This document shows, piece by piece, positions 8,765 through 17,110 of a DNA stretch of 32,000 nt (position 1 is the first letter of the stretch; each line of letters opens with the position of its first letter). This stretch comes from an uncultured cyanobacterium. Lineage in GTDB: Bacteria; Cyanobacteriota; Cyanobacteriia; Cyanobacteriales; Nostocaceae. The position numbers were made by a program, and so were the translations under genes. The stretch lies in NCBI GenBank assembly GCA_963740315.1, contig CAVUDP010000001.1, forward strand, positions 551,003 to 583,002. The letters run 5' to 3'. The notes under the pieces are model-generated. The model had not been told where the DNA came from and searched no databases. It saw only the letters and a list, made by a program, of their open reading frames with translations.

Positions 8765-9186
8765 CAAATACTACTCGAAAAAAAACTTTTAATGGCAACC
8801 CTTATCTGATAAGATTATTTATATAAAGACACGTTCTAATAATGGGAATATTCGCGGTTTTTTTTAACTAGGCACAAATTTCCATTATAAAAAAAACCAT
8901 TTCTTATCTATTACTAATTATCTCACATCGCGGACATTTTTTTCTCCCTAATTAAATTTATATTTTTTTTTAAAATTACTCCCGTCTCGGTCCTGGGGAT
9001 TATCTATAAAATTTCTACCCCCTCTACCCCCTCTACCCCCTCTCCCCAACATAAAGAACCTCTACCCCCTCTCCCCCTCGCTAATCATAAAGCCGGGGAG
9101 GAAAAAGCAAGATTCTAGCAACGCTCGCTTTCTTCTATGAAACAATAGAATAAAGGTGTTATAGATTAGCTTCGTTGCTTGCAGCC

Positions 9187-10017
9187 ATGTCAGAAATTAC
9201 AGTATCTGAGGAAAGTACACCACCCCCAACACAATACGAACTTCCTTGTGATGATGGTGTACCAATGGAAACTCAACGGCATAAACTTCAGATGGATATG
9301 CTCATAGATACTCTATCACCTTGGTTGGCGATGCGAAATGATGGGTATGTGGGCGGTAATATGTTTGTGTATTTTAGTTTGGCACAAATTAGAACCCAAG
9401 ATTTCCGGGGACCCGATTTTTTTGCGGTGTTAGGAGTACCTAAAAAAGAACGACTTTCTTGGGTGGTTTGGGAAGAAGGAAAAGCTCCTGATGTGGTGAT
9501 TGAGTTGTTATCGGAAAGTACTGCCGCACGGGATAAAAATGAGAAGAAGTTGATTTATCAAAACCAAATGCGGGTACCCGAATATTTCTGGTTCGATCCT
9601 TTTAACCCGGATGATTGGGCTGGTTTTTCCATGCAACATGGAGTATATCAAACTATAGCTGTAAATACTCAAAATCAACTGGTAAGTCAATCTTTGGGTT
9701 TAGCTTTAACACGTTGGCAAGGTATTTATAAAGGTATTGAAGCAGTTTGGTTGCGTTGGGTGACAATCGAAGGTGAGTTATTACCAACTTCTGATGATAT
9801 AGCCGAGCAAGAAAAACGACGTGCCGAACTTGAAAGACGACGCGCAGAACAACAAAGACAGCTTGCCGAACAACAAAGACAGCGTGCGGAACTTGCAGAA
9901 TCTCAATTAAAACAAGTTGCTGTTAATTTATTGCAGCAAGGAATGGCGGTAGAAGAGGTAGCGAGATTAACAAATTTATCAGTTTCTCAAGTTGAAGAAT
10001 TTGGTAGAGGGGGATAA
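9187..10017 (+). CDS. Uma2-family (DUF820) restriction-endonuclease-fold protein with a C-terminal Arg/Gln-rich coiled coil and an HTH-like tail
   Basis: The pattern ...METQRH..., GGNMFVYF, PDFFAVLGV, APDVVIELLSEST..D...K...Y...VPEYFWFDP is typical of Uma2. The C-terminus is RRAELERRRAEQQRQLAEQQRQRAEL followed by GMAVEEVARLTNLSVSQVEEF. The ORF track offers an upstream TTG at 9175; the ATG at 9187 is preferred. Confidence 0.85.
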   Translation: MSEITVSEESTPPPTQYELPCDDGVPMETQRHKLQMDMLIDTLSPWLAMRNDGYVGGNMFVYFSLAQIRTQDFRGPDFFAVLGVPKKERLSWVVWEEGKAPDVVIELLSESTAARDKNEKKLIYQNQMRVPEYFWFDPFNPDDWAGFSMQHGVYQTIAVNTQNQLVSQSLGLALTRWQGIYKGIEAVWLRWVTIEGELLPTSDDIAEQEKRRAELERRRAEQQRQLAEQQRQRAELAESQLKQVAVNLLQQGMAVEEVARLTNLSVSQVEEFGRGG

Positions 10018-10019
10018 AT

Positions 10020-10499
10020 ATGGGTAAACTAATACTGCCAAATCTTCAGGGAAAACAGATGGGGCAAGTAATTGCTACTCTTACCGTTACGAATAGAATT
10101 GACCAAGTTTTGGCTGAACGAGGTTTTATTACGCCAGAAGAAGTACGAACAAGTATTTTGACTGATGTTTTAGTTGATACGGGGGCTACTTTATTGTGTT
10201 TGCCTTCTGCTGTAATTAGTCAATTAGGTTTAGTTGAAGGGGGAGAAGCAAGAGTAGATAGCGTTGGAGTTCAAAAGGGACGGATTTTTCGTGATGTTGA
10301 TTTATGTATAGAAAATCGTCAAGGTACTTTTGATTGTTTGGAGCTTACAGAAGTTTCCTTTGCTTTATTAGGTGTAACTCCAATGGAAGTTTTAGGTTTA
10401 GAACCCGATTTAAGAAATCGTAAGTTAAGAGTTTTACCAATGAATTCGGAGCAAACTTATCTTAGTCTGTTTCCTTCGCAAGTCGTACAGAGGATGTAA
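10020..10499 (+). CDS. Retropepsin-like (clan AA) aspartic protease
   Basis: 159-aa ORF with the catalytic VLVDTGATLLCLP (DTGA) motif and the size of a single-lobe retropepsin-like protease. Its ATG lies 2 nt after the Uma2 TAA (taaatATG). An internal Met at codon 14 is an alternative start. Confidence 0.75.
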   Translation: MGKLILPNLQGKQMGQVIATLTVTNRIDQVLAERGFITPEEVRTSILTDVLVDTGATLLCLPSAVISQLGLVEGGEARVDSVGVQKGRIFRDVDLCIENRQGTFDCLELTEVSFALLGVTPMEVLGLEPDLRNRKLRVLPMNSEQTYLSLFPSQVVQRM

Positions 10500-10571: not shown

Positions 10572-10979
10572 ATGGAACCTTTAAGTACTGCTGCGATCGC
10601 TATCGGTTCTGTAGTTGCTACCAAAGCTTTAGAAAAAACGGGCGAAAAAGTAGGCGAAGCATTATGGGATAAAACTGGTAAGTTTCTCGTCACGCTTAAA
10701 AAACATTCTCCCCATACCATTACTGCAATTGAAAAAGCACCCGTTCAACCAATTGATTACGGTAAAGCTGTAGTAGAAGTAGAATCTGCTGCTCAAGAGA
10801 ATCCCGAAGTAAATCAAGCAATGGAAGAAGTAGCAGCAGCAGCCAAGGCTGATCCAAAAGTAGCTCCCATAATAAATAACATTAACTCTGAATCACCAAC
10901 CGTTGTAAATAACACGAAGTTAGCTGAGTATATTAAAAACGTATTTCAAGGAAATACTATAATTGGTGGTAATTTTTGA
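10572..10979 (+). CDS. Small helical protein with a hydrophobic N-terminal helix, probably the detached N-terminal (effector or adaptor) module of the downstream NB-ARC-TPR gene
   Basis: 135 aa beginning MEPLSTAAIAIGSVVATKALEKTGEKVGEALW and ending in the Asn/Gly-rich NVFQGNTIIGGNF. It terminates at TGA 10977-10979, in the same reading frame as the next ORF. Confidence 0.5.
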   Translation: MEPLSTAAIAIGSVVATKALEKTGEKVGEALWDKTGKFLVTLKKHSPHTITAIEKAPVQPIDYGKAVVEVESAAQENPEVNQAMEEVAAAAKADPKVAPIINNINSESPTVVNNTKLAEYIKNVFQGNTIIGGNF

Positions 10980-11072
10980 ATCGAGTCGTCCGAACGGGAA
11001 CGGGCAAAGTTAAATCCCCCAAAATACATTCCATACAAAGGCGTTAACAACTTTGTTGGTAGAGAAGAAGAA

Positions 11073-13646
11073 ATGAAACTGCTGCATGAGAAGCTACAAC
11101 AATCAAATGCAGTGGCAATTTCTGCGATCGCTGGTATGGGGGGAGTAGGTAAAACGGAATTAGCAACACAGTATGCACGGCAACATGAAACTGATTATCC
11201 AGGAGGAATTTGCTGGTTAAATGCTAGAGATACAAATCTAGCAGCCGAGATAATCCAGTTTTATCAGTTTTATGTAAATAATCAGCGAGAGATTCCCCAA
11301 GAGTTAGGGGGAAGACAGTTAACAATATCCGAACAAGCTATTTGGTGTTGGGAAAATTGGCAGCCTTCGGAAGGACTTATATTAGTTGTTTGGGATGATG
11401 TTACGGATTTAGGTAGTTGCCAGAAACTACTACCAAAAAACAATCGTTTTCGTCTGCTGATTACTACAAGATTACGGAATCTCGACCCCAATATTGTTGA
11501 AGAAATTCCCCTAAATGTATTATCTCCAGAAAAATCTATAGAATTACTGACAGCATTGGTAGGGAAAAAGCGAGTAGAGAAGGAATTAGAAACAGCAACA
11601 GAATTATGTAAATGGTTGGGATATCTTCCATTGGGGTTAGATTTAGTCGGACGATATGTAGCAGATGACCCTGACTTATCATTGCAAGAAATGTTACAAA
11701 GCCTGAAAAAACAGCGATTGGATGACGAGGCTCTAGAACATGGTTCGGAGAGTTGGACAACAGCACAGCGAGGGGTATTAGCAGCTTTTGAATTAAGCTG
11801 GCAGAAGCTGGATGTCATGACGAAGCAGGTAGCAGAGTTATTAAGTTTATTTGCACCAGATGTGATTCCTTGGGGTTTAGTTAAATCTTCTTGTGAAAGA
11901 TTGGATTGGAGCAAGCCCGATATTAATAAAGCCAAAAAACAACTTTACAAGCATTATTTAGTACAACGTTTAGAAGATAGAGAAAGTGGCTATACAATTC
12001 ATCCCCTAATCCGTCAATTCTTGCAAGTAAAGTTAAATTTAACATCATCAGCTTCGGAGTTGAGGCAGGCTTTCGTTACAGAAATGCTGTCAGTTGCAAA
12101 AACAATTCCCAGTATTCCTATCCTTTCAGATATTGAGTCAGTAAGTGATGCTATACCCCACCTAAAAGAAGTTGCAGAAAACTTGATTGCTGTGGTGGAA
12201 GATGAAGAGTTAATCTCAGCTTTTATAGGAATCGCTAGGTTTTATAAAGGACAAGGGTTATATGCATTGGAAGAGCCTTGGAGGAAGCAGTGTATATCAA
12301 CGTTACAAGCTCACTTGGGAGAAGAACATCTTGATGTGGCTACCAGTTACAACAATCTGGCTCTCCTCTACGATTCCCAAGGAAGGTACGCAGAAGCGGA
12401 ACCTCTATATCAAAAAGCATTAGAACTATACCAACGGCTGCTGGGAGATGAACATCCCTTGGCGGCAACCAGTTACAACAATCTGGCAGGACTCTATCGT
12501 AGCCAAGGAAGGTACGCAGAAGCGGAACCCCTATATCAAAAAGCATTAGAACTATACCAACGGCTGCTGGGAGATGAACATCTTGATGTGGCAACCAGTT
12601 ACAACAATCTGGCAGGACTCTATCGTAGCCAAGGAAGGTACGCAGAAGCGGAACCCCTATATCAAAAAGCATTAGAACTATACCAACGGCTGCTGGGAGA
12701 AGAACATCCCAATGTGGCTACCAGTTACAACAATCTGGCTCTCCTCTACGATTCCCAAGGAAGGTACGCAGAAGCGGAACCTCTATATCAAAAAGCATTA
12801 GAACTATACCAACGGCTGCTGGGAGAAGAACATCCCAATGTGGCTACCAGTTACAACAATCTGGCAGAACTCTACCGTAGCCAAGGAAGGTACACCGAAG
12901 CAGAACTGCTGTATCAAAAAGCATTATCACTAAGCCAACGGATACTGGGAGAAGGCCATCCCGATGTTGCACAAAGTTTGATCAACTTGGCAGGACTCTA
13001 CGAGTCCCAAGGAAGGTACACCGAAGCAGAACCGCTATATCAAAAAGCATTATCACTAAGCCAACGGCTACTGGGAGAAGAACATCCCGAGGTGGCAAGG
13101 GGTTACAACAATCTGGCAGTACTCTATCATAGCCAAGGAAGGTACACCGAAGCAGAACTGCTGTATCAAAAAGCATTATCACTAAGCCAACGGCTGTTGG
13201 GAGAAGATCATCCCTCAGTCGCAACCAGTTACAACAATCTGGCAGGACTCTATCGTAGCCAAGGAAGGTACACCGAAGCAGAACCGCTGTATCAAAAAGC
13301 ATTATCACTAAAGCAACGGCTGCTAGGAGTTGAACATCCCTCGGTGGCAACCAGTTACAACAATCTGGCTCTTCTTTACGAATCTCAAGGACGTTACACG
13401 GAGGCCGAAACCTTGTACAAACAAGCATTAGAACTATACCAACGGCTGCTCGGTGAAGAACATCCCTCGGTGGCAACCAGTTACAACAATCTGGCAGCAC
13501 TCTACCGTAGCCAAGAGCGGTACACGGAAGCGGAACCGCTGTATCAAAAAGCTTTAGCTATTTTTGAGCAACAACTAGGAACGGAGCATCCCAATACTAT
13601 TACTGTCCGAAACAATCTTGAATACCTTCACGATAATATGAGCTAA
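11073..13646 (+). CDS. NLR-like STAND NTPase: NB-ARC domain plus about 10.5 TPR (TPR_10/12, kinesin-light-chain type) repeats
   Basis: Motifs present: Walker A GMGGVGKTELA, Walker B LILVVWDDV, RLLITTR, GYLPLGL (GLPL), and an MHD-like IHPLIRQF. The repeats follow the pattern EEHPxVATSYNNLAxLYxSQGRYxEAEPLYQKAL. The frame stays open upstream to 10980 (IESSERERAKLNPPKYIPYKGVNNFVGREEE) with no ATG, GTG or TTG. The annotated ATG therefore probably truncates an ancestral 10572..13646 gene. Confidence 0.88.
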   Translation: MKLLHEKLQQSNAVAISAIAGMGGVGKTELATQYARQHETDYPGGICWLNARDTNLAAEIIQFYQFYVNNQREIPQELGGRQLTISEQAIWCWENWQPSEGLILVVWDDVTDLGSCQKLLPKNNRFRLLITTRLRNLDPNIVEEIPLNVLSPEKSIELLTALVGKKRVEKELETATELCKWLGYLPLGLDLVGRYVADDPDLSLQEMLQSLKKQRLDDEALEHGSESWTTAQRGVLAAFELSWQKLDVMTKQVAELLSLFAPDVIPWGLVKSSCERLDWSKPDINKAKKQLYKHYLVQRLEDRESGYTIHPLIRQFLQVKLNLTSSASELRQAFVTEMLSVAKTIPSIPILSDIESVSDAIPHLKEVAENLIAVVEDEELISAFIGIARFYKGQGLYALEEPWRKQCISTLQAHLGEEHLDVATSYNNLALLYDSQGRYAEAEPLYQKALELYQRLLGDEHPLAATSYNNLAGLYRSQGRYAEAEPLYQKALELYQRLLGDEHLDVATSYNNLAGLYRSQGRYAEAEPLYQKALELYQRLLGEEHPNVATSYNNLALLYDSQGRYAEAEPLYQKALELYQRLLGEEHPNVATSYNNLAELYRSQGRYTEAELLYQKALSLSQRILGEGHPDVAQSLINLAGLYESQGRYTEAEPLYQKALSLSQRLLGEEHPEVARGYNNLAVLYHSQGRYTEAELLYQKALSLSQRLLGEDHPSVATSYNNLAGLYRSQGRYTEAEPLYQKALSLKQRLLGVEHPSVATSYNNLALLYESQGRYTEAETLYKQALELYQRLLGEEHPSVATSYNNLAALYRSQERYTEAEPLYQKALAIFEQQLGTEHPNTITVRNNLEYLHDNMS
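12321..13643 (+). repeat. Tandem array of 126-bp (42-aa) TPR-coding units, about 10.5 copies, highly homogenised
   Basis: Units start at 12321, 12447, 12573, 12699, 12825, 12951, 13077, 13203, 13329, 13455 and 13581 (partial). Unit 1 versus unit 4 differ at 3 of 126 nt, and unit 2 versus unit 3 at 6 of 126 nt. Confidence 0.95.
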
Positions 13647-13921: not shown

Positions 13922-16900
13922 TTAATCCAAAGGTACATTACTTGCTACAGCTAAGGCTCCTGCGATCGCAGAGAATAAACCGGAGACAACTGCTGTTCCA
14001 AATAACCACCAAGCTGCTGATGCTGCTGCTTTACGGGTTTCTTCGGCTTGTTTTTGGGCTTGGTGTTTAACTTCTTCTAAGCGTCGCTGTGCTTCTTCTT
14101 GAATTCTTTCGGCTCTTCTTAATACGGTATTACGCGCATTCTCGATTTGATCGATGACTTTGTTCGCATCATGTTCGGAAATATCATCGCGAGAACTCAT
14201 CAGTGCTACATAGGTTTCCCGATTGAAAGATGATAACCTACCGCGTAATGCATCAAATCCGGCTTGGGGATCGTGAAACAGTTCGCGAACATCGCGCTTG
14301 ATGCCATCGTAGTTGAGTTCGGGACGTTCCAGCCCGTTTAAATAATTGCGGATATTGTCGAATACTCCATCTATTGTATCTTGAATCCGCCGCTCAATAC
14401 CTCTTACTTGAGCCACAAATTGCTCGCGTACTGACATGATGCTATCGGCAATTTGCTCTGCTTCCTGGTTGCTCATATCTCCGCGAATTTTCAGTAAAGC
14501 GGCGATTGTAGAACGATCGAAGTGAGAAAGGCGATCGCCTAAGCTATCGATTCCGACTCGCGGATCGTTTAACAACAGATTTAGGTCGCGCTTGATACCT
14601 TCTGGATTGAGTTCTTGTTTGCCAGTTCCCCGGAGGTATTCTTCTAAATATGTTTGGAAGCCTTGCGCTCTTTCTTGAGTACGTGTAATCATGCGTCGGG
14701 GCGCACGGATGACTTGACGAATTGAAGATTGTACCGAGTCGATGACTTGGTTAACTTCATCTTCGCTCATGTCTCGTCGCTGGCTCAGTAGTTTTACTAA
14801 GGTGTCTCTATCAACTTGCGACAATCTGCGACGTAATGCAACGGCACCTTCTTGGGGATTCTCAAACAGTTTATTAATGTCGCGTTGAATACCATCGGGA
14901 TTAAGTTCCGATTTACCAGTATTCCGTAAATAATCTGCAATTGTGGTGGTTACGTTATCGTACTCGGCTTGAGCTTTATCTACAATCTTGCCCGGTGCGT
15001 GACGAACGCTATTCCAAGAATGTTCTACGCTATCAACGGTTTCATTAATTTGGTCTTCACTCAAATCTTGGCGTTGATTGAGCAACTGTACCAAAGTATC
15101 CCGGTCAAAACGCGACAACCGCGACCGAATTGCTGACATTCCGGCTTGGGGATCTTGTAATAAAGTTTTCAACTCACCGCGAATTGCATCGGGGTTGAGT
15201 TCGCCTTTACCCGTGTTACGCAGATATGATTCTAAATTCAACCACAGGCTTTCTGCTTGATACTTGGCTTGATCTGCAAGTCCTTTGGACTCAACTAAAG
15301 CTTCGTCGCGCTGCTTTTCTAATTCATCGAGAATCGGGTCAATTTCTCCGGAGGAAATATCGTTGCGCTGTGCCAGTATCGAACGCATTTGTCCCCGTTC
15401 AAATCGAGACAAGCGCATGGCTAAGGTTTCGTAATCTGCATCTCCATCTTCCACAATCGGTTTGAAATCTTGCTTGATTCCTTCAGCATTCAAGCTTGAC
15501 TTGGGAGTTACTAACAGATAACTTTCTACCCGACGCTGCAAATCTTCAACTATTTCTTTTTCTTCATCAGCCCTTGCCTGTACCAAGACAGCTTTACGAA
15601 CCATTTCCAAGCGATCGGCGATTTGCTTGATCTCCGTTTGAGTTAGTAAACCCCGCTGTTTGAGAATGCTGACAAAATCGCTGCGATCGAGCTTTTCTAA
15701 CTCACGACGTACCGTACCGGGATCTGCTGCGGGATCGTAAATTACGTCGCGAAATTCCTGCTCAACTTTCTCGTTGCTAAGCTGCCAAGCATAGGTATTA
15801 TGCAGATAATTTTCCACATCGGCGCGAATCGTACTAAAAGACTGCGATGCTGTGGGAAGTCCTATCTTATCTGCTTGTTCGGTGGCTTTATCTTTAGCGC
15901 TGGTAATGGTGCTAAGAATTTTTTCCACATCCAAGTCGGAAAGATCGGCCCTTCCCATGACTACACCACCCAGAGTTGTCAAAGCTTGCTGTATCGTTTC
16001 CTGAACTGGACCACCGGCTGATTGTTGTGATGATTGTCCTGCATTCCCACTTTGCTTTTGGGAACGCATTTCGCTCATAGCTCGATCTAACTTAGCTTCG
16101 AGTTCATCAGTTTTGCTTTGTCCCGGTGCAACTGATTTGAGATAGCTAACCAACTCACCCAAACCGTTTCCACCGCCACCCGAACTACCTTGAGATGAGC
16201 CTACCGTCTGCTTCCAAACATCATATAAAGTATCGGCAATGCGTTTAACTTCTTTTTTGGAAAGGTCAGTACGACTGCTAACTAATTCTACAAACTTTTG
16301 TTTATCAATATTACGCAGTTCTGCCGCACCTGCAACCGACTGAAGTGATGCATCTGAAAGTAGATTTTCAAATTCTTTACGTATAGACTGCACGTCCAAT
16401 TCTTTAGGACGTACCGTATCCAAGTAATCTTCTAAATTTTCCTTGATGCTTTCGGGATCGATCGCATTACCGATTTCGTTACGTACAGCCGAGGCTGCGG
16501 CTTCTGCTGTGGCTACAACTTGTCTGTTGACGGCTTTTGCTCCTAAAGCAGCGGTAGCCGTTCCCATAATTGTCTGCAATCCAGAAGTTGCCGCGTTAAC
16601 AACATTACCAATTAAAGAACCTACCGTTGTCGAACTTACCCACACCAGCAGACAAAAGTACGCTGCCCAAATTACCAAACCTAAAATCGCGCCCACGCCT
16701 AAATCTAAAGACAGCAAGCTGAGTTTTACCGCTAGGAAACAAGCAACAAAAAGGGAAAGTGTGACTGAAATCAGCGTACCTAAGCCGACAGCAGTACCAA
16801 TTTTACTAATCGTACTACCTAAACTTTCACTATCGTCATTATTATGACTTGAACTTGAACCCGAATCCGAATTGGATGAGCTACCCAAAAAAGAGATACC

Positions 16901-17110
16901 CGCAGCCACCGCAAGATTTGTTAATACCAACTGAATGGCAAAAGCTAGGATAATACCGGAAATCAAAGCGATAAAAAACTTCGGTCCGGAAAAAGCAACG
17001 GAAGCATCTGCTGGCGTTATGGGTTGCGGTGGTTCTACTAAAATCGGAGCCTGAGCTATCCAAGTCATAGACTTAGATAGCAAAAGCGTTATGTACGTAC
17101 TTTCAATCAT
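13922..17110 (-). CDS. Large membrane-anchored protein with seven tandem helical repeats of roughly 100 aa (function unknown)
   Basis: 1062 aa. The N-terminal roughly 200 aa have about 3 hydrophobic helices and a Ser/Gly/Asp-rich loop, and the C-terminus has a TM helix (AAWWLFGTAVVSGLFSAIAGALAVA). The repeats follow xxYLRNTGKxELNPxGIxRDxxxLxxDPxxGxxALRxRLSxxDRxTLVxLLxQRxDxSExxxNxxxDxV. A GGAG-like RBS (agaggaag) precedes the ATG. Confidence 0.85.
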   Translation of the reverse strand: MIESTYITLLLSKSMTWIAQAPILVEPPQPITPADASVAFSGPKFFIALISGIILAFAIQLVLTNLAVAAGISFLGSSSNSDSGSSSSHNNDDSESLGSTISKIGTAVGLGTLISVTLSLFVACFLAVKLSLLSLDLGVGAILGLVIWAAYFCLLVWVSSTTVGSLIGNVVNAATSGLQTIMGTATAALGAKAVNRQVVATAEAAASAVRNEIGNAIDPESIKENLEDYLDTVRPKELDVQSIRKEFENLLSDASLQSVAGAAELRNIDKQKFVELVSSRTDLSKKEVKRIADTLYDVWKQTVGSSQGSSGGGGNGLGELVSYLKSVAPGQSKTDELEAKLDRAMSEMRSQKQSGNAGQSSQQSAGGPVQETIQQALTTLGGVVMGRADLSDLDVEKILSTITSAKDKATEQADKIGLPTASQSFSTIRADVENYLHNTYAWQLSNEKVEQEFRDVIYDPAADPGTVRRELEKLDRSDFVSILKQRGLLTQTEIKQIADRLEMVRKAVLVQARADEEKEIVEDLQRRVESYLLVTPKSSLNAEGIKQDFKPIVEDGDADYETLAMRLSRFERGQMRSILAQRNDISSGEIDPILDELEKQRDEALVESKGLADQAKYQAESLWLNLESYLRNTGKGELNPDAIRGELKTLLQDPQAGMSAIRSRLSRFDRDTLVQLLNQRQDLSEDQINETVDSVEHSWNSVRHAPGKIVDKAQAEYDNVTTTIADYLRNTGKSELNPDGIQRDINKLFENPQEGAVALRRRLSQVDRDTLVKLLSQRRDMSEDEVNQVIDSVQSSIRQVIRAPRRMITRTQERAQGFQTYLEEYLRGTGKQELNPEGIKRDLNLLLNDPRVGIDSLGDRLSHFDRSTIAALLKIRGDMSNQEAEQIADSIMSVREQFVAQVRGIERRIQDTIDGVFDNIRNYLNGLERPELNYDGIKRDVRELFHDPQAGFDALRGRLSSFNRETYVALMSSRDDISEHDANKVIDQIENARNTVLRRAERIQEEAQRRLEEVKHQAQKQAEETRKAAASAAWWLFGTAVVSGLFSAIAGALAVASNVPLD

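Follow-up and report, generated by a model that had tools for sequence, protein, structure and literature searches.

Two genes on the forward strand of a 32,000-nucleotide (nt) stretch of DNA from an uncultured cyanobacterium of the Nostocaceae (assembly GCA_963740315.1, contig CAVUDP010000001.1, positions 551,003 to 583,002; the whole stretch is called the window here) raise the question of what a single stop codon is doing between a putative effector and its putative sensor. According to the called open reading frames (ORFs) and their translation, ORF 10572..10979 (ATG, 135 amino acids, aa) and ORF 11073..13646 (ATG, 857 aa) share one frame, and the only stop that separates them is the TGA at 10977-10979; the full frame of 1025 codons is otherwise open. 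The 31 codons that follow the TGA (10980-11072) are open and encode IESSERERAKLNPPKYIPYKGVNNFVGREEE, and the earliest in-frame ATG, GTG or TTG past the stop is codon 32, the annotated ATG. An ORF and codon check confirmed in these points the earlier note on this DNA, which had described one frame, one TGA and 31 open codons without a start, and had left three explanations open: a very recent nonsense pseudogene, a functional split into two proteins, or a sequencing error or recoding site. The recoding site is now the best supported of these; the view that two products are made is right in part, as the short product is certainly encoded, and the pseudogene or error does not hold. We consider it probable that the locus belongs to a class of recoded effector-sensor genes that is conserved in cyanobacteria and in which the UGA undergoes programmed readthrough. 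Among the related loci compared here, we observed conservation of the stop codon, of its spacing from a covarying hairpin, of the reading frame and of a coding signature in the gap. The RNA hairpin, the family-wide conservation and the contrast with two-gene relatives were not part of the earlier note.

The downstream ORF encodes a protein of the NOD-like receptor (NLR) type. It has the features by which an NB-ARC STAND (signal transduction ATPase with numerous domains) NTPase is defined, namely an above-threshold NB-ARC match (PF00931, 52.3 bits; cut-off 23.5), a Walker A motif, an hhGRExE motif and a repeat array, here of TPR_12 type (11 stretches). The NB-ARC profile match begins 3 residues ahead of the annotated ATG and the FxSxx_TPR (NCBIfam) match 9 residues ahead of it; therefore, the STAND hhGRExE motif (FVGREEE, 11052-11072) lies inside the supposed intergenic gap, and the previous suggestion that the segment before the ATG is part of the NTPase domain is borne out. 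Support was also obtained for the layout suggested at the time, a small helical N-terminal module with a hydrophobic first helix followed by a STAND NTPase and TPR repeats. No Shine-Dalgarno-like sequence was found ahead of the ATG at 11073. The gap 10980-11072 contains no above-chance promoter and no terminator on the + strand, and a terminator in the gap was rejected as an explanation on this ground. The features of the locus are listed below; junction-type loci are defined in the paragraph after next.

10572..10976, + strand: small effector ORF, 135 aa; residues 1 to about 95, putative Bell-like helical domain; residues about 113-135 (10908-10976), Gly/Asn/Gln-rich C-terminal motif NNTKLAEYIKNVFQGNTIIGGNF
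10977..10979, + strand: in-frame UGA, candidate recoded (leaky) stop; TGA in 49/49 junction-type loci
10980..10987, + strand: 8-nt spacer AUCGAGUC from the stop codon to the hairpin; family consensus CUR NAG YC
10988..11005, + strand: RNA hairpin, GUCCG (10988-10992), 8-nt loop AACGGGAA (10993-11000), CGGGC (11001-11005)
11006..11018, + strand: A-rich tail AAAGUUAAA, then UCCC; conserved; a pseudoknot between UCCC and the loop GGGA is tentative
10980..11072, + strand: linker and STAND hhGRExE motif (FVGREEE, 11052-11072), from codon-position entropy and profile starts
11073..13646, + strand: annotated NB-ARC/TPR ORF, 857 aa; Walker A GMGGVGKT at 11133-11156; NB-ARC match to about 11723

At the DNA level the TPR array (12316-13557) is a near-perfect tandem repeat with a period of 126 nt, 9.9 copies and 84% matches. 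Highly internally conserved repeats of this type are reported for fungal and bacterial NLRs; in the window they also generate long spurious ORFs on the - strand.

We compared 84 related loci, of which 49 contain and 35 lack a common junction, defined as the TGA followed by the consensus CTR NAG YCG YCY GAM SGG GAA CGG RCA AAG TTA AAT CCC. The stop codon is TGA in all 49 junction loci, whereas in the junction-less relatives the usual stop is TAA (25) or TAG (6) and no extension follows; TGA is also the rarest stop among the long ORFs of the window (3/23). The +4 base is C in 46/49 junction loci, UGA-C being the weakest termination context in bacteria. The median open length past the TGA is 733 codons in frame 0 and 10 codons in the other two frames, where the maximum is 78. 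Frame 0 is open for at least 100 codons in 46/49 loci, and the in-frame arrangement is far beyond chance. One extension ends after 45 codons, close to the end of its contig (L037), three are open for 113-138 codons and then decayed (L011, L033, L039), and two loci have one extra nonsense codon each (L007 and L050). The junction is spread over many genera, occurs at several paralogous loci per genome and was found in independent assemblies. A homology search for uninterrupted orthologues returned none with a sense codon at the TGA position, either among the 512 homologue clusters of the small protein or among the best 150 of 346 profile matches, and the earlier idea of an ancestral single gene that was simply cut is not upheld.

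The extra nonsense codons are an in-frame TAG at codon 2 past the TGA in L007 and L099 (Brasilonema angustatum) and a TGA at codon 41 in L050. These loci are otherwise intact, with about 540 and 560 open codons, and the extra stops either inactivated them very recently or are additional leaky stops that are tolerated.

The two-gene relatives show what the junction class is missing. In 28 of the junction-less relatives a downstream NLR has its own ATG, which lies in frame 0, 1 or 2 relative to the effector in 9, 8 and 11 loci, respectively, after gaps of 17-544 nt. The N-terminus of these NLRs copies the C-terminal motif of the effector, and such a pair was found in at least 20 two-gene relatives, one example being an effector that ends in ...KLADKIGQVVMPGGTGNIENMSF next to an NLR that starts with MPEDSGKFADKIGVYAAPGSQVNIGTQ... 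The segment that follows the motif in NLRs of the two-gene class (QKQLTPTKSIPYRGSVHFVGRE) is homologous to the peptide that follows the TGA in the junction class (ERTKLTPTKSIPYRGSVNFVGRE); what is missing from the junction-class NLRs is therefore precisely the head made up of Met and motif. In the window, as in the 48 other junction loci, the motif is present in a single copy, located before the TGA, in place of the two copies of the paired-motif layout of Dyrka et al., and the window would show the pair only in a readthrough product.

Immediately downstream of the stop codon lies an RNA element, which we analysed on 47 distinct junctions. RNAalifold predicts one 5-bp stem that begins 8 nt after the TGA and encloses an 8-nt loop. 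The cells of the stem are paired in 97.4% of cases, compared with 15-41% in controls with a slid partner, and the covariation score is 0.473 as opposed to at most 0.13 in the slid controls. Compensatory changes were observed in three of the five pairs (UA 26 / CG 17; CG 28 / UA 5; GC 41 / CG 3). As G-U pairs are tolerated in the stem (26 cells), the pairing is at the level of RNA and on the sense strand. Insertions or deletions between the TGA and the stem are absent from all 47 junctions, and the loop tolerates one additional nucleotide in L056 and three in L037. Conservation of at least 90% extends to columns A20, G21 and C23 of the spacer and to columns 42-44 and 48 of the tail. When run over 759 kb of sequence, a covariance model of the element had one match in each junction locus and in the window, two in L090, and no others; a search of Rfam returned no family for the junction.

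The gap itself behaves as coding sequence under protein-level selection. Across 22 NB-ARC loci, the entropy of codons 14-31 past the TGA is 0.70/0.57/1.02 at positions 1/2/3, a coding pattern, and the amino acids FVGR are invariant while their third positions vary. In codons 1-13 (0.55/0.39/0.39) third positions are constrained as much as first positions, and several are invariant in spite of a change of residue, for example NCG encoding S, P or T. Most extensions have no start codon before the first motif that is conserved in them. In the NB-ARC loci, counted from the TGA, FVGR falls near codon 25 and Walker A near codons 49-52; the first in-frame start frequently comes later than FVGR, the window having it at codon 32 and L012, L028 and L031 at codon 39. 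Beside or inside Walker A (codons 50-53) is where it lies in L001, L015, L016, L026, L048 and L068, and here gene callers began the NLR inside AVAGMGGVGKT. In loci with a PsbP-like extension, described below, the first start (codons 78-115) comes after a predicted membrane helix. Shine-Dalgarno-like sequences are absent.

The small protein apparently belongs to a large cyanobacterial family of Bell-like proteins of about 130-150 aa, in which a short C-terminal motif rich in Gly, Asn and Gln comes after a helical bundle, and its ORF is not a fragment. Homology searches yielded 512 clusters, the best 120 of which comprise proteins of 102-155 aa (117 of them at least 127 aa) that are unannotated and lack a Pfam domain; they come from Nostoc, Tolypothrix, Calothrix, Brasilonema, Rhizonema, Microcystis, Woronichinia and others, with the closest relatives in Tolypothrix, Calothrix and Nostoc. 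A profile search against 1.84 billion representatives gave 346 matches, and nearly all of the best 150 are 54-217 aa long. Five long proteins (364-895 aa) among these 150 are direct fusions with other domains, and the junction is present in none of the five. The alignment shows that the first ~95 residues are strongly conserved, while the C-terminal 25-40 residues fall into several motif types, such as NVFQGNTIIGGNF. The window protein begins M-E-P-LSTAAIAIGSVVATKAL and has a hydrophobic first helix; E2 or D2 is present in almost all aligned homologues. The AlphaFold2 model (pLDDT, the predicted local confidence, of 73) has helices at residues 6-22, 29-43, 47-54, 63-76 and 78-93. For the Bell/BASS-NLR pairs described previously, the effector is a protein of 120-140 aa that forms a helical bundle, the first helix being hydrophobic and residue 2 or 3 acidic; its Bell domain is a five-helix unit of about 100 aa, and its short C-terminal motif is repeated at the N-terminus of the NLR (10.1101/2020.01.06.895854). 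The pairs are found in Nostoc, Calothrix, Microcystis and Fischerella, as here (10.1101/2020.01.06.895854). The window protein shares this description in its length of 135 aa, five helices within residues 6-93, hydrophobic first helix, acidic residue 2, taxonomic range and adjacency to an NLR. The proposal of a Bell/HeLo-type effector made from the window alone is also in keeping with its relatives, which show the paired C- and N-terminal motif layout that defines Bell/BASS-NLR pairs.

Scans with Pfam, NCBIfam and PADLOC assigned the small protein to no family, and a profile search of the PDB returned only spurious low-complexity or HIV-capsid matches. A Foldseek comparison of the AlphaFold2 model with the PDB gave no significant match; the best, Bcl-xL (E about 0.65, TM score about 0.23), was rejected as meaningless. 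Bell-like N-terminal domains also occur fused directly to dynamin-like GTPases, in the proteins P0192 and P0257 (823 and 895 aa), and Dynamin_N/MMR_HSR1 genes are located near two junction loci (L001, 1-407; L004, 9944-11866).

Effectors and sensors on either side of the junction are modular. The in-frame extensions comprise NB-ARC/TPR, NACHT/HEAT/NCC-H, NACHT/nSTAND3 and CHAT/TPR proteins or a membrane-anchored PsbP-like domain, and the effectors upstream of the junction belong to two subfamilies and end in at least five types of C-terminal motif. A metagenome scan with the junction sequence added 24 more loci; in some of these the effector is a divergent Bell-like sister type and the tails are different, for instance EKIGLVIQGGNVNINEVKF and APVIQGGSGHNITFN. 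The NLR lineage of the window (…KYIPYKGVNNFVGREEEM…) is found behind three different effector tails, namely those of the window, of L020 and of L096/L106, and several genomes contain two or more junction loci. The tail of the first copy in L090 (NWQGINVKGGNNTISGNTFNF) shares its motif type with L060, a paired two-gene locus; therefore, the unpaired tails are of the same kind as paired signalling motifs. The junction is kept while both of its flanks are shuffled, and the shuffling may be a mere consequence of the conserved sequence.

L090 contains two complete junction-type systems in tandem on one metagenomic contig (6318-8357 and 10396-12624); their effectors and tails differ and their NB-ARC heads are closely related. 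In L004, L010, L017, L038, L049 and L058 the extension is not an NLR: its roughly 215 codons encode a predicted membrane helix and a domain resembling PsbP (PF18933/PF01789, with E = 1e-5 to 1e-4 narrowly missing the cut-offs). In this subclass the same junction seems to connect the same effector with a sensor that is not of STAND type and may be extracytoplasmic.

Programmed readthrough is the best explanation for these observations because the UGA is invariant, is followed by C at +4, and is placed at a fixed 8-nt spacing from a covarying hairpin, and because the frame and the coding signature of the gap are conserved while start codons are few and the NLR has no motif of its own. We infer that the UGA is read through with insertion of a residue, that the motif has amyloid behaviour and that the effector has a death function. 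Termination at the UGA (10977-10979) would yield the 135-aa protein, a Bell-like membrane-targeting helical domain with a C-terminal amyloid-type signalling motif. A fraction of ribosomes would pass the UGA, aided by its weak context and by the hairpin exactly 8 nt downstream, and would produce a protein of ~1024 aa consisting of effector, motif, linker, NB-ARC and TPR. The short effector would then be abundant and the effector-motif-NLR fusion rare. The junction NLR lacks a motif of its own and, at most loci, also a start codon, and it is through the fusion that it would gain the two. In analogy to the HET-S/NWD2 and Bell/BASS systems, we hypothesise that ligand-induced oligomerisation of the rare fusion nucleates the fold of the motif, and that the nucleated motif recruits the abundant short effector, leading to membrane damage or cell death; the rate of readthrough would set the ratio of sensor to effector. 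On balance, we lean towards a dedicated recoding signal (UGA, 8-nt spacer and hairpin) in a bacterial cellular gene family, one that produces an effector and a low-abundance effector-NLR fusion from one frame in place of the two-gene, two-motif layout and that acts as a portable junction across effectors and sensors.

Several points weigh against programmed readthrough as the explanation. The window is the only locus with A instead of C after the TGA, and the hairpin is short and, in the window alone, weak (-6.8 kcal/mol, z = +1.2), no better than shuffled sequences. A pseudoknot between the loop GGGA and the downstream UCCC, which we tried as an additional element, is unsupported, with 82% pairing compared to 72% at slide -1 and little covariation. 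Early in-frame GTGs exist in a few loci (L008, codon 1; L056, codon 6), and the window ATG at codon 32 makes it possible that at this locus the NLR is initiated separately and lacks only hhGRExE. Membership of the effector in the Bell group is by descriptive features and gene context, with neither a profile nor a fold match. To our knowledge, structure-stimulated readthrough is established in viruses and eukaryotes and not in bacterial cellular genes. A literature search found no description of readthrough or recoding in cyanobacterial or bacterial NLR systems, which is not proof of its absence.

The alternative that survives best, which we nevertheless hold to be unlikely, is that two proteins are made, with all ribosomes stopping at the UGA and the NLR initiated on its own at ATG 11073, at non-canonical codons or by reinitiation. 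The hairpin would then serve translational coupling, mRNA processing or mRNA stability, and the shared frame would be the relic of an old fusion. Consistent with this, the short protein is certainly encoded, gene calls for its homologues are stand-alone genes throughout, an ATG follows 31 codons after the stop in the window, and many cyanobacterial genes have no Shine-Dalgarno sequence. Separate initiation is possible for the window because of ATG 11073, but it does not fit the family: a relic frame would not have remained intact in 46/49 loci while the two-gene relatives are distributed 9/8/11, many loci have no start before hhGRExE, Walker A or the transmembrane helix, and the gap shows coding-type selection. 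An NLR made in this way would also lack the motif by which sensor and effector are connected in the paired relatives.

We consider it quite improbable that the UGA is decoded by dedicated machinery, either as selenocysteine (Sec) with the hairpin acting like a SECIS (selenocysteine insertion sequence) element, or by a specialised suppressor tRNA. A stop that is always UGA and is followed by a conserved hairpin and loop does correspond to the general layout of bacterial selenoprotein genes; however, the UGA is in an inter-domain linker and not in an active site, none of the homologues searched (the 512 clusters and the best 150 of the 346 matches) has Cys or another sense codon in its place, and the loop is closer to the UGA than is known from bacterial SECIS elements. 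No tRNA gene is linked to any of the 49 loci, nor is there one in the window. In the passages of two selenium-trait surveys that deal with cyanobacteria, only selD and ybbB are reported and no Sec-decoding trait. ARAGORN made a single tRNA-like call in the 49 loci, a 'tRNA-???' with a four-base anticodon in L088 (7320-7410, + strand, opposite to the junction) that lies exactly across the junction and is probably spurious.

It is very improbable that the junction is a DNA-level recombination site at which effector and sensor cassettes are swapped, with translation across it being irrelevant. The modules are clearly shuffled on either side, and the NLR type of the window with its three effector tails accords with this; yet the frequent G-U pairs of the stem (26 cells) would be mismatches in DNA or in the other strand, and the invariant TGA, fixed frame, open extension and missing starts would be left unexplained. 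Ribosomal bypassing was rejected, as there are no matching take-off and landing codons. A recent nonsense mutation or a sequencing error in a single effector-NLR fusion gene, as initially considered in view of one stop in an otherwise open 1025-codon frame, is refuted by the occurrence of the TGA at the same position and with conserved surroundings in 49 loci from many genera, paralogues within genomes and independent assemblies, and by the lack of an uninterrupted version among the homologues searched, even if rare decayed copies exist (L007, L050, L011, L033, L039).

Two genes that are only 2 nt apart are located directly 5' of the small ORF (9175-10499, + strand). The first encodes a putative endonuclease of the Uma2 family (PF05685, E = 2e-19) that has a helix-turn-helix and a C-terminal coiled segment rich in Gln and Arg, and the second a protein of 159 aa with a weak match to retropepsin-like aspartyl proteases (E about 1e-3, below the cut-off). 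Convergent with the NLR is a 1062-aa ORF (13922-17110, - strand) with hydrophobic segments at either end and about seven internal repeats of 85-90 aa (…ELNPDGIQRDINKLFENPQEGAVALRRRLSQVDRDTLVKLLSQRRDMSEDEVNQVIDSV…), and a terminator-like hairpin is found on the - strand at 13886-13864.

Most cases of programmed readthrough that are known to be helped by a downstream structure are viral or eukaryotic, and the conserved, covarying signal shared by dozens of loci would make the process accessible to study in bacteria. If confirmed, it would have no precedent known to us, either as a structured readthrough signal in chromosomal genes of bacteria or as a translational recoding step in NLR immunity. 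Programmed readthrough would imply that many cyanobacterial NLR genes are misannotated, for example with starts called inside Walker A, and would offer a means of setting the ratio of sensor to effector in a suicide pathway by termination efficiency, which may itself respond to stress or infection. It would also explain the many Bell-type effectors whose C-terminal motif has no partner on the neighbouring NLR; about half of 117 motifs were found to have no gene pair (10.1101/2020.01.06.895854).

Among known uses of UGA, the layout resembles that of bacterial selenoprotein genes in that a UGA is closely followed by a conserved hairpin within coding sequence. It differs in the linker position of the UGA, the absence of Cys homologues, the geometry of the hairpin and the phylum, which is not presented as decoding Sec in the cyanobacterial passages of the surveys. 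The coat/A1 genes of phage Qbeta provide a case of UGA readthrough. In murine leukaemia virus gag-pol, the stop codon is followed by an 8-nt spacer and an RNA pseudoknot, as described in references 41-43 of PMC7026636. The junction is similar in having an in-frame stop, a structure at a fixed distance of 8 nt and two proposed products that would share an N-terminus and be made at a set ratio. Unlike the viral signal, it occurs in a bacterial chromosomal family, uses UGA rather than UAG and has support for a 5-bp hairpin only.

As for the signalling logic, in the HET-S/NWD2 system of Podospora anserina the motif of the NLR templates the same motif on a pore-forming HeLo effector encoded by the neighbouring gene. 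The junction loci would follow this logic of templating by an NLR motif; HET-S/NWD2, however, consists of two genes with two motif copies, whereas here one copy would serve two products of one frame. Closest are the Bell/BASS-NLR pairs, to which the Bab/Agp system of E. coli is a related Bell/BASS-type comparison (10.1101/2024.11.07.622273). As in those pairs, the effector gene is collinear with and directly 5' of an NB-ARC or NACHT gene, and close relatives show the motif pair. The described pairs are separate or overlapping ORFs, with no mention of a stop codon or readthrough in 10.1101/2020.01.06.895854. In contrast, the NLR of the 49 junction loci has no N-terminal motif and usually no start, and the two frames are linked by a conserved UGA and hairpin. 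As the paired motif would arise here only by readthrough, we describe the locus as working like a Bell/BASS-NLR system, one in which the recoding junction would replace both the second gene start and the second copy of the motif.

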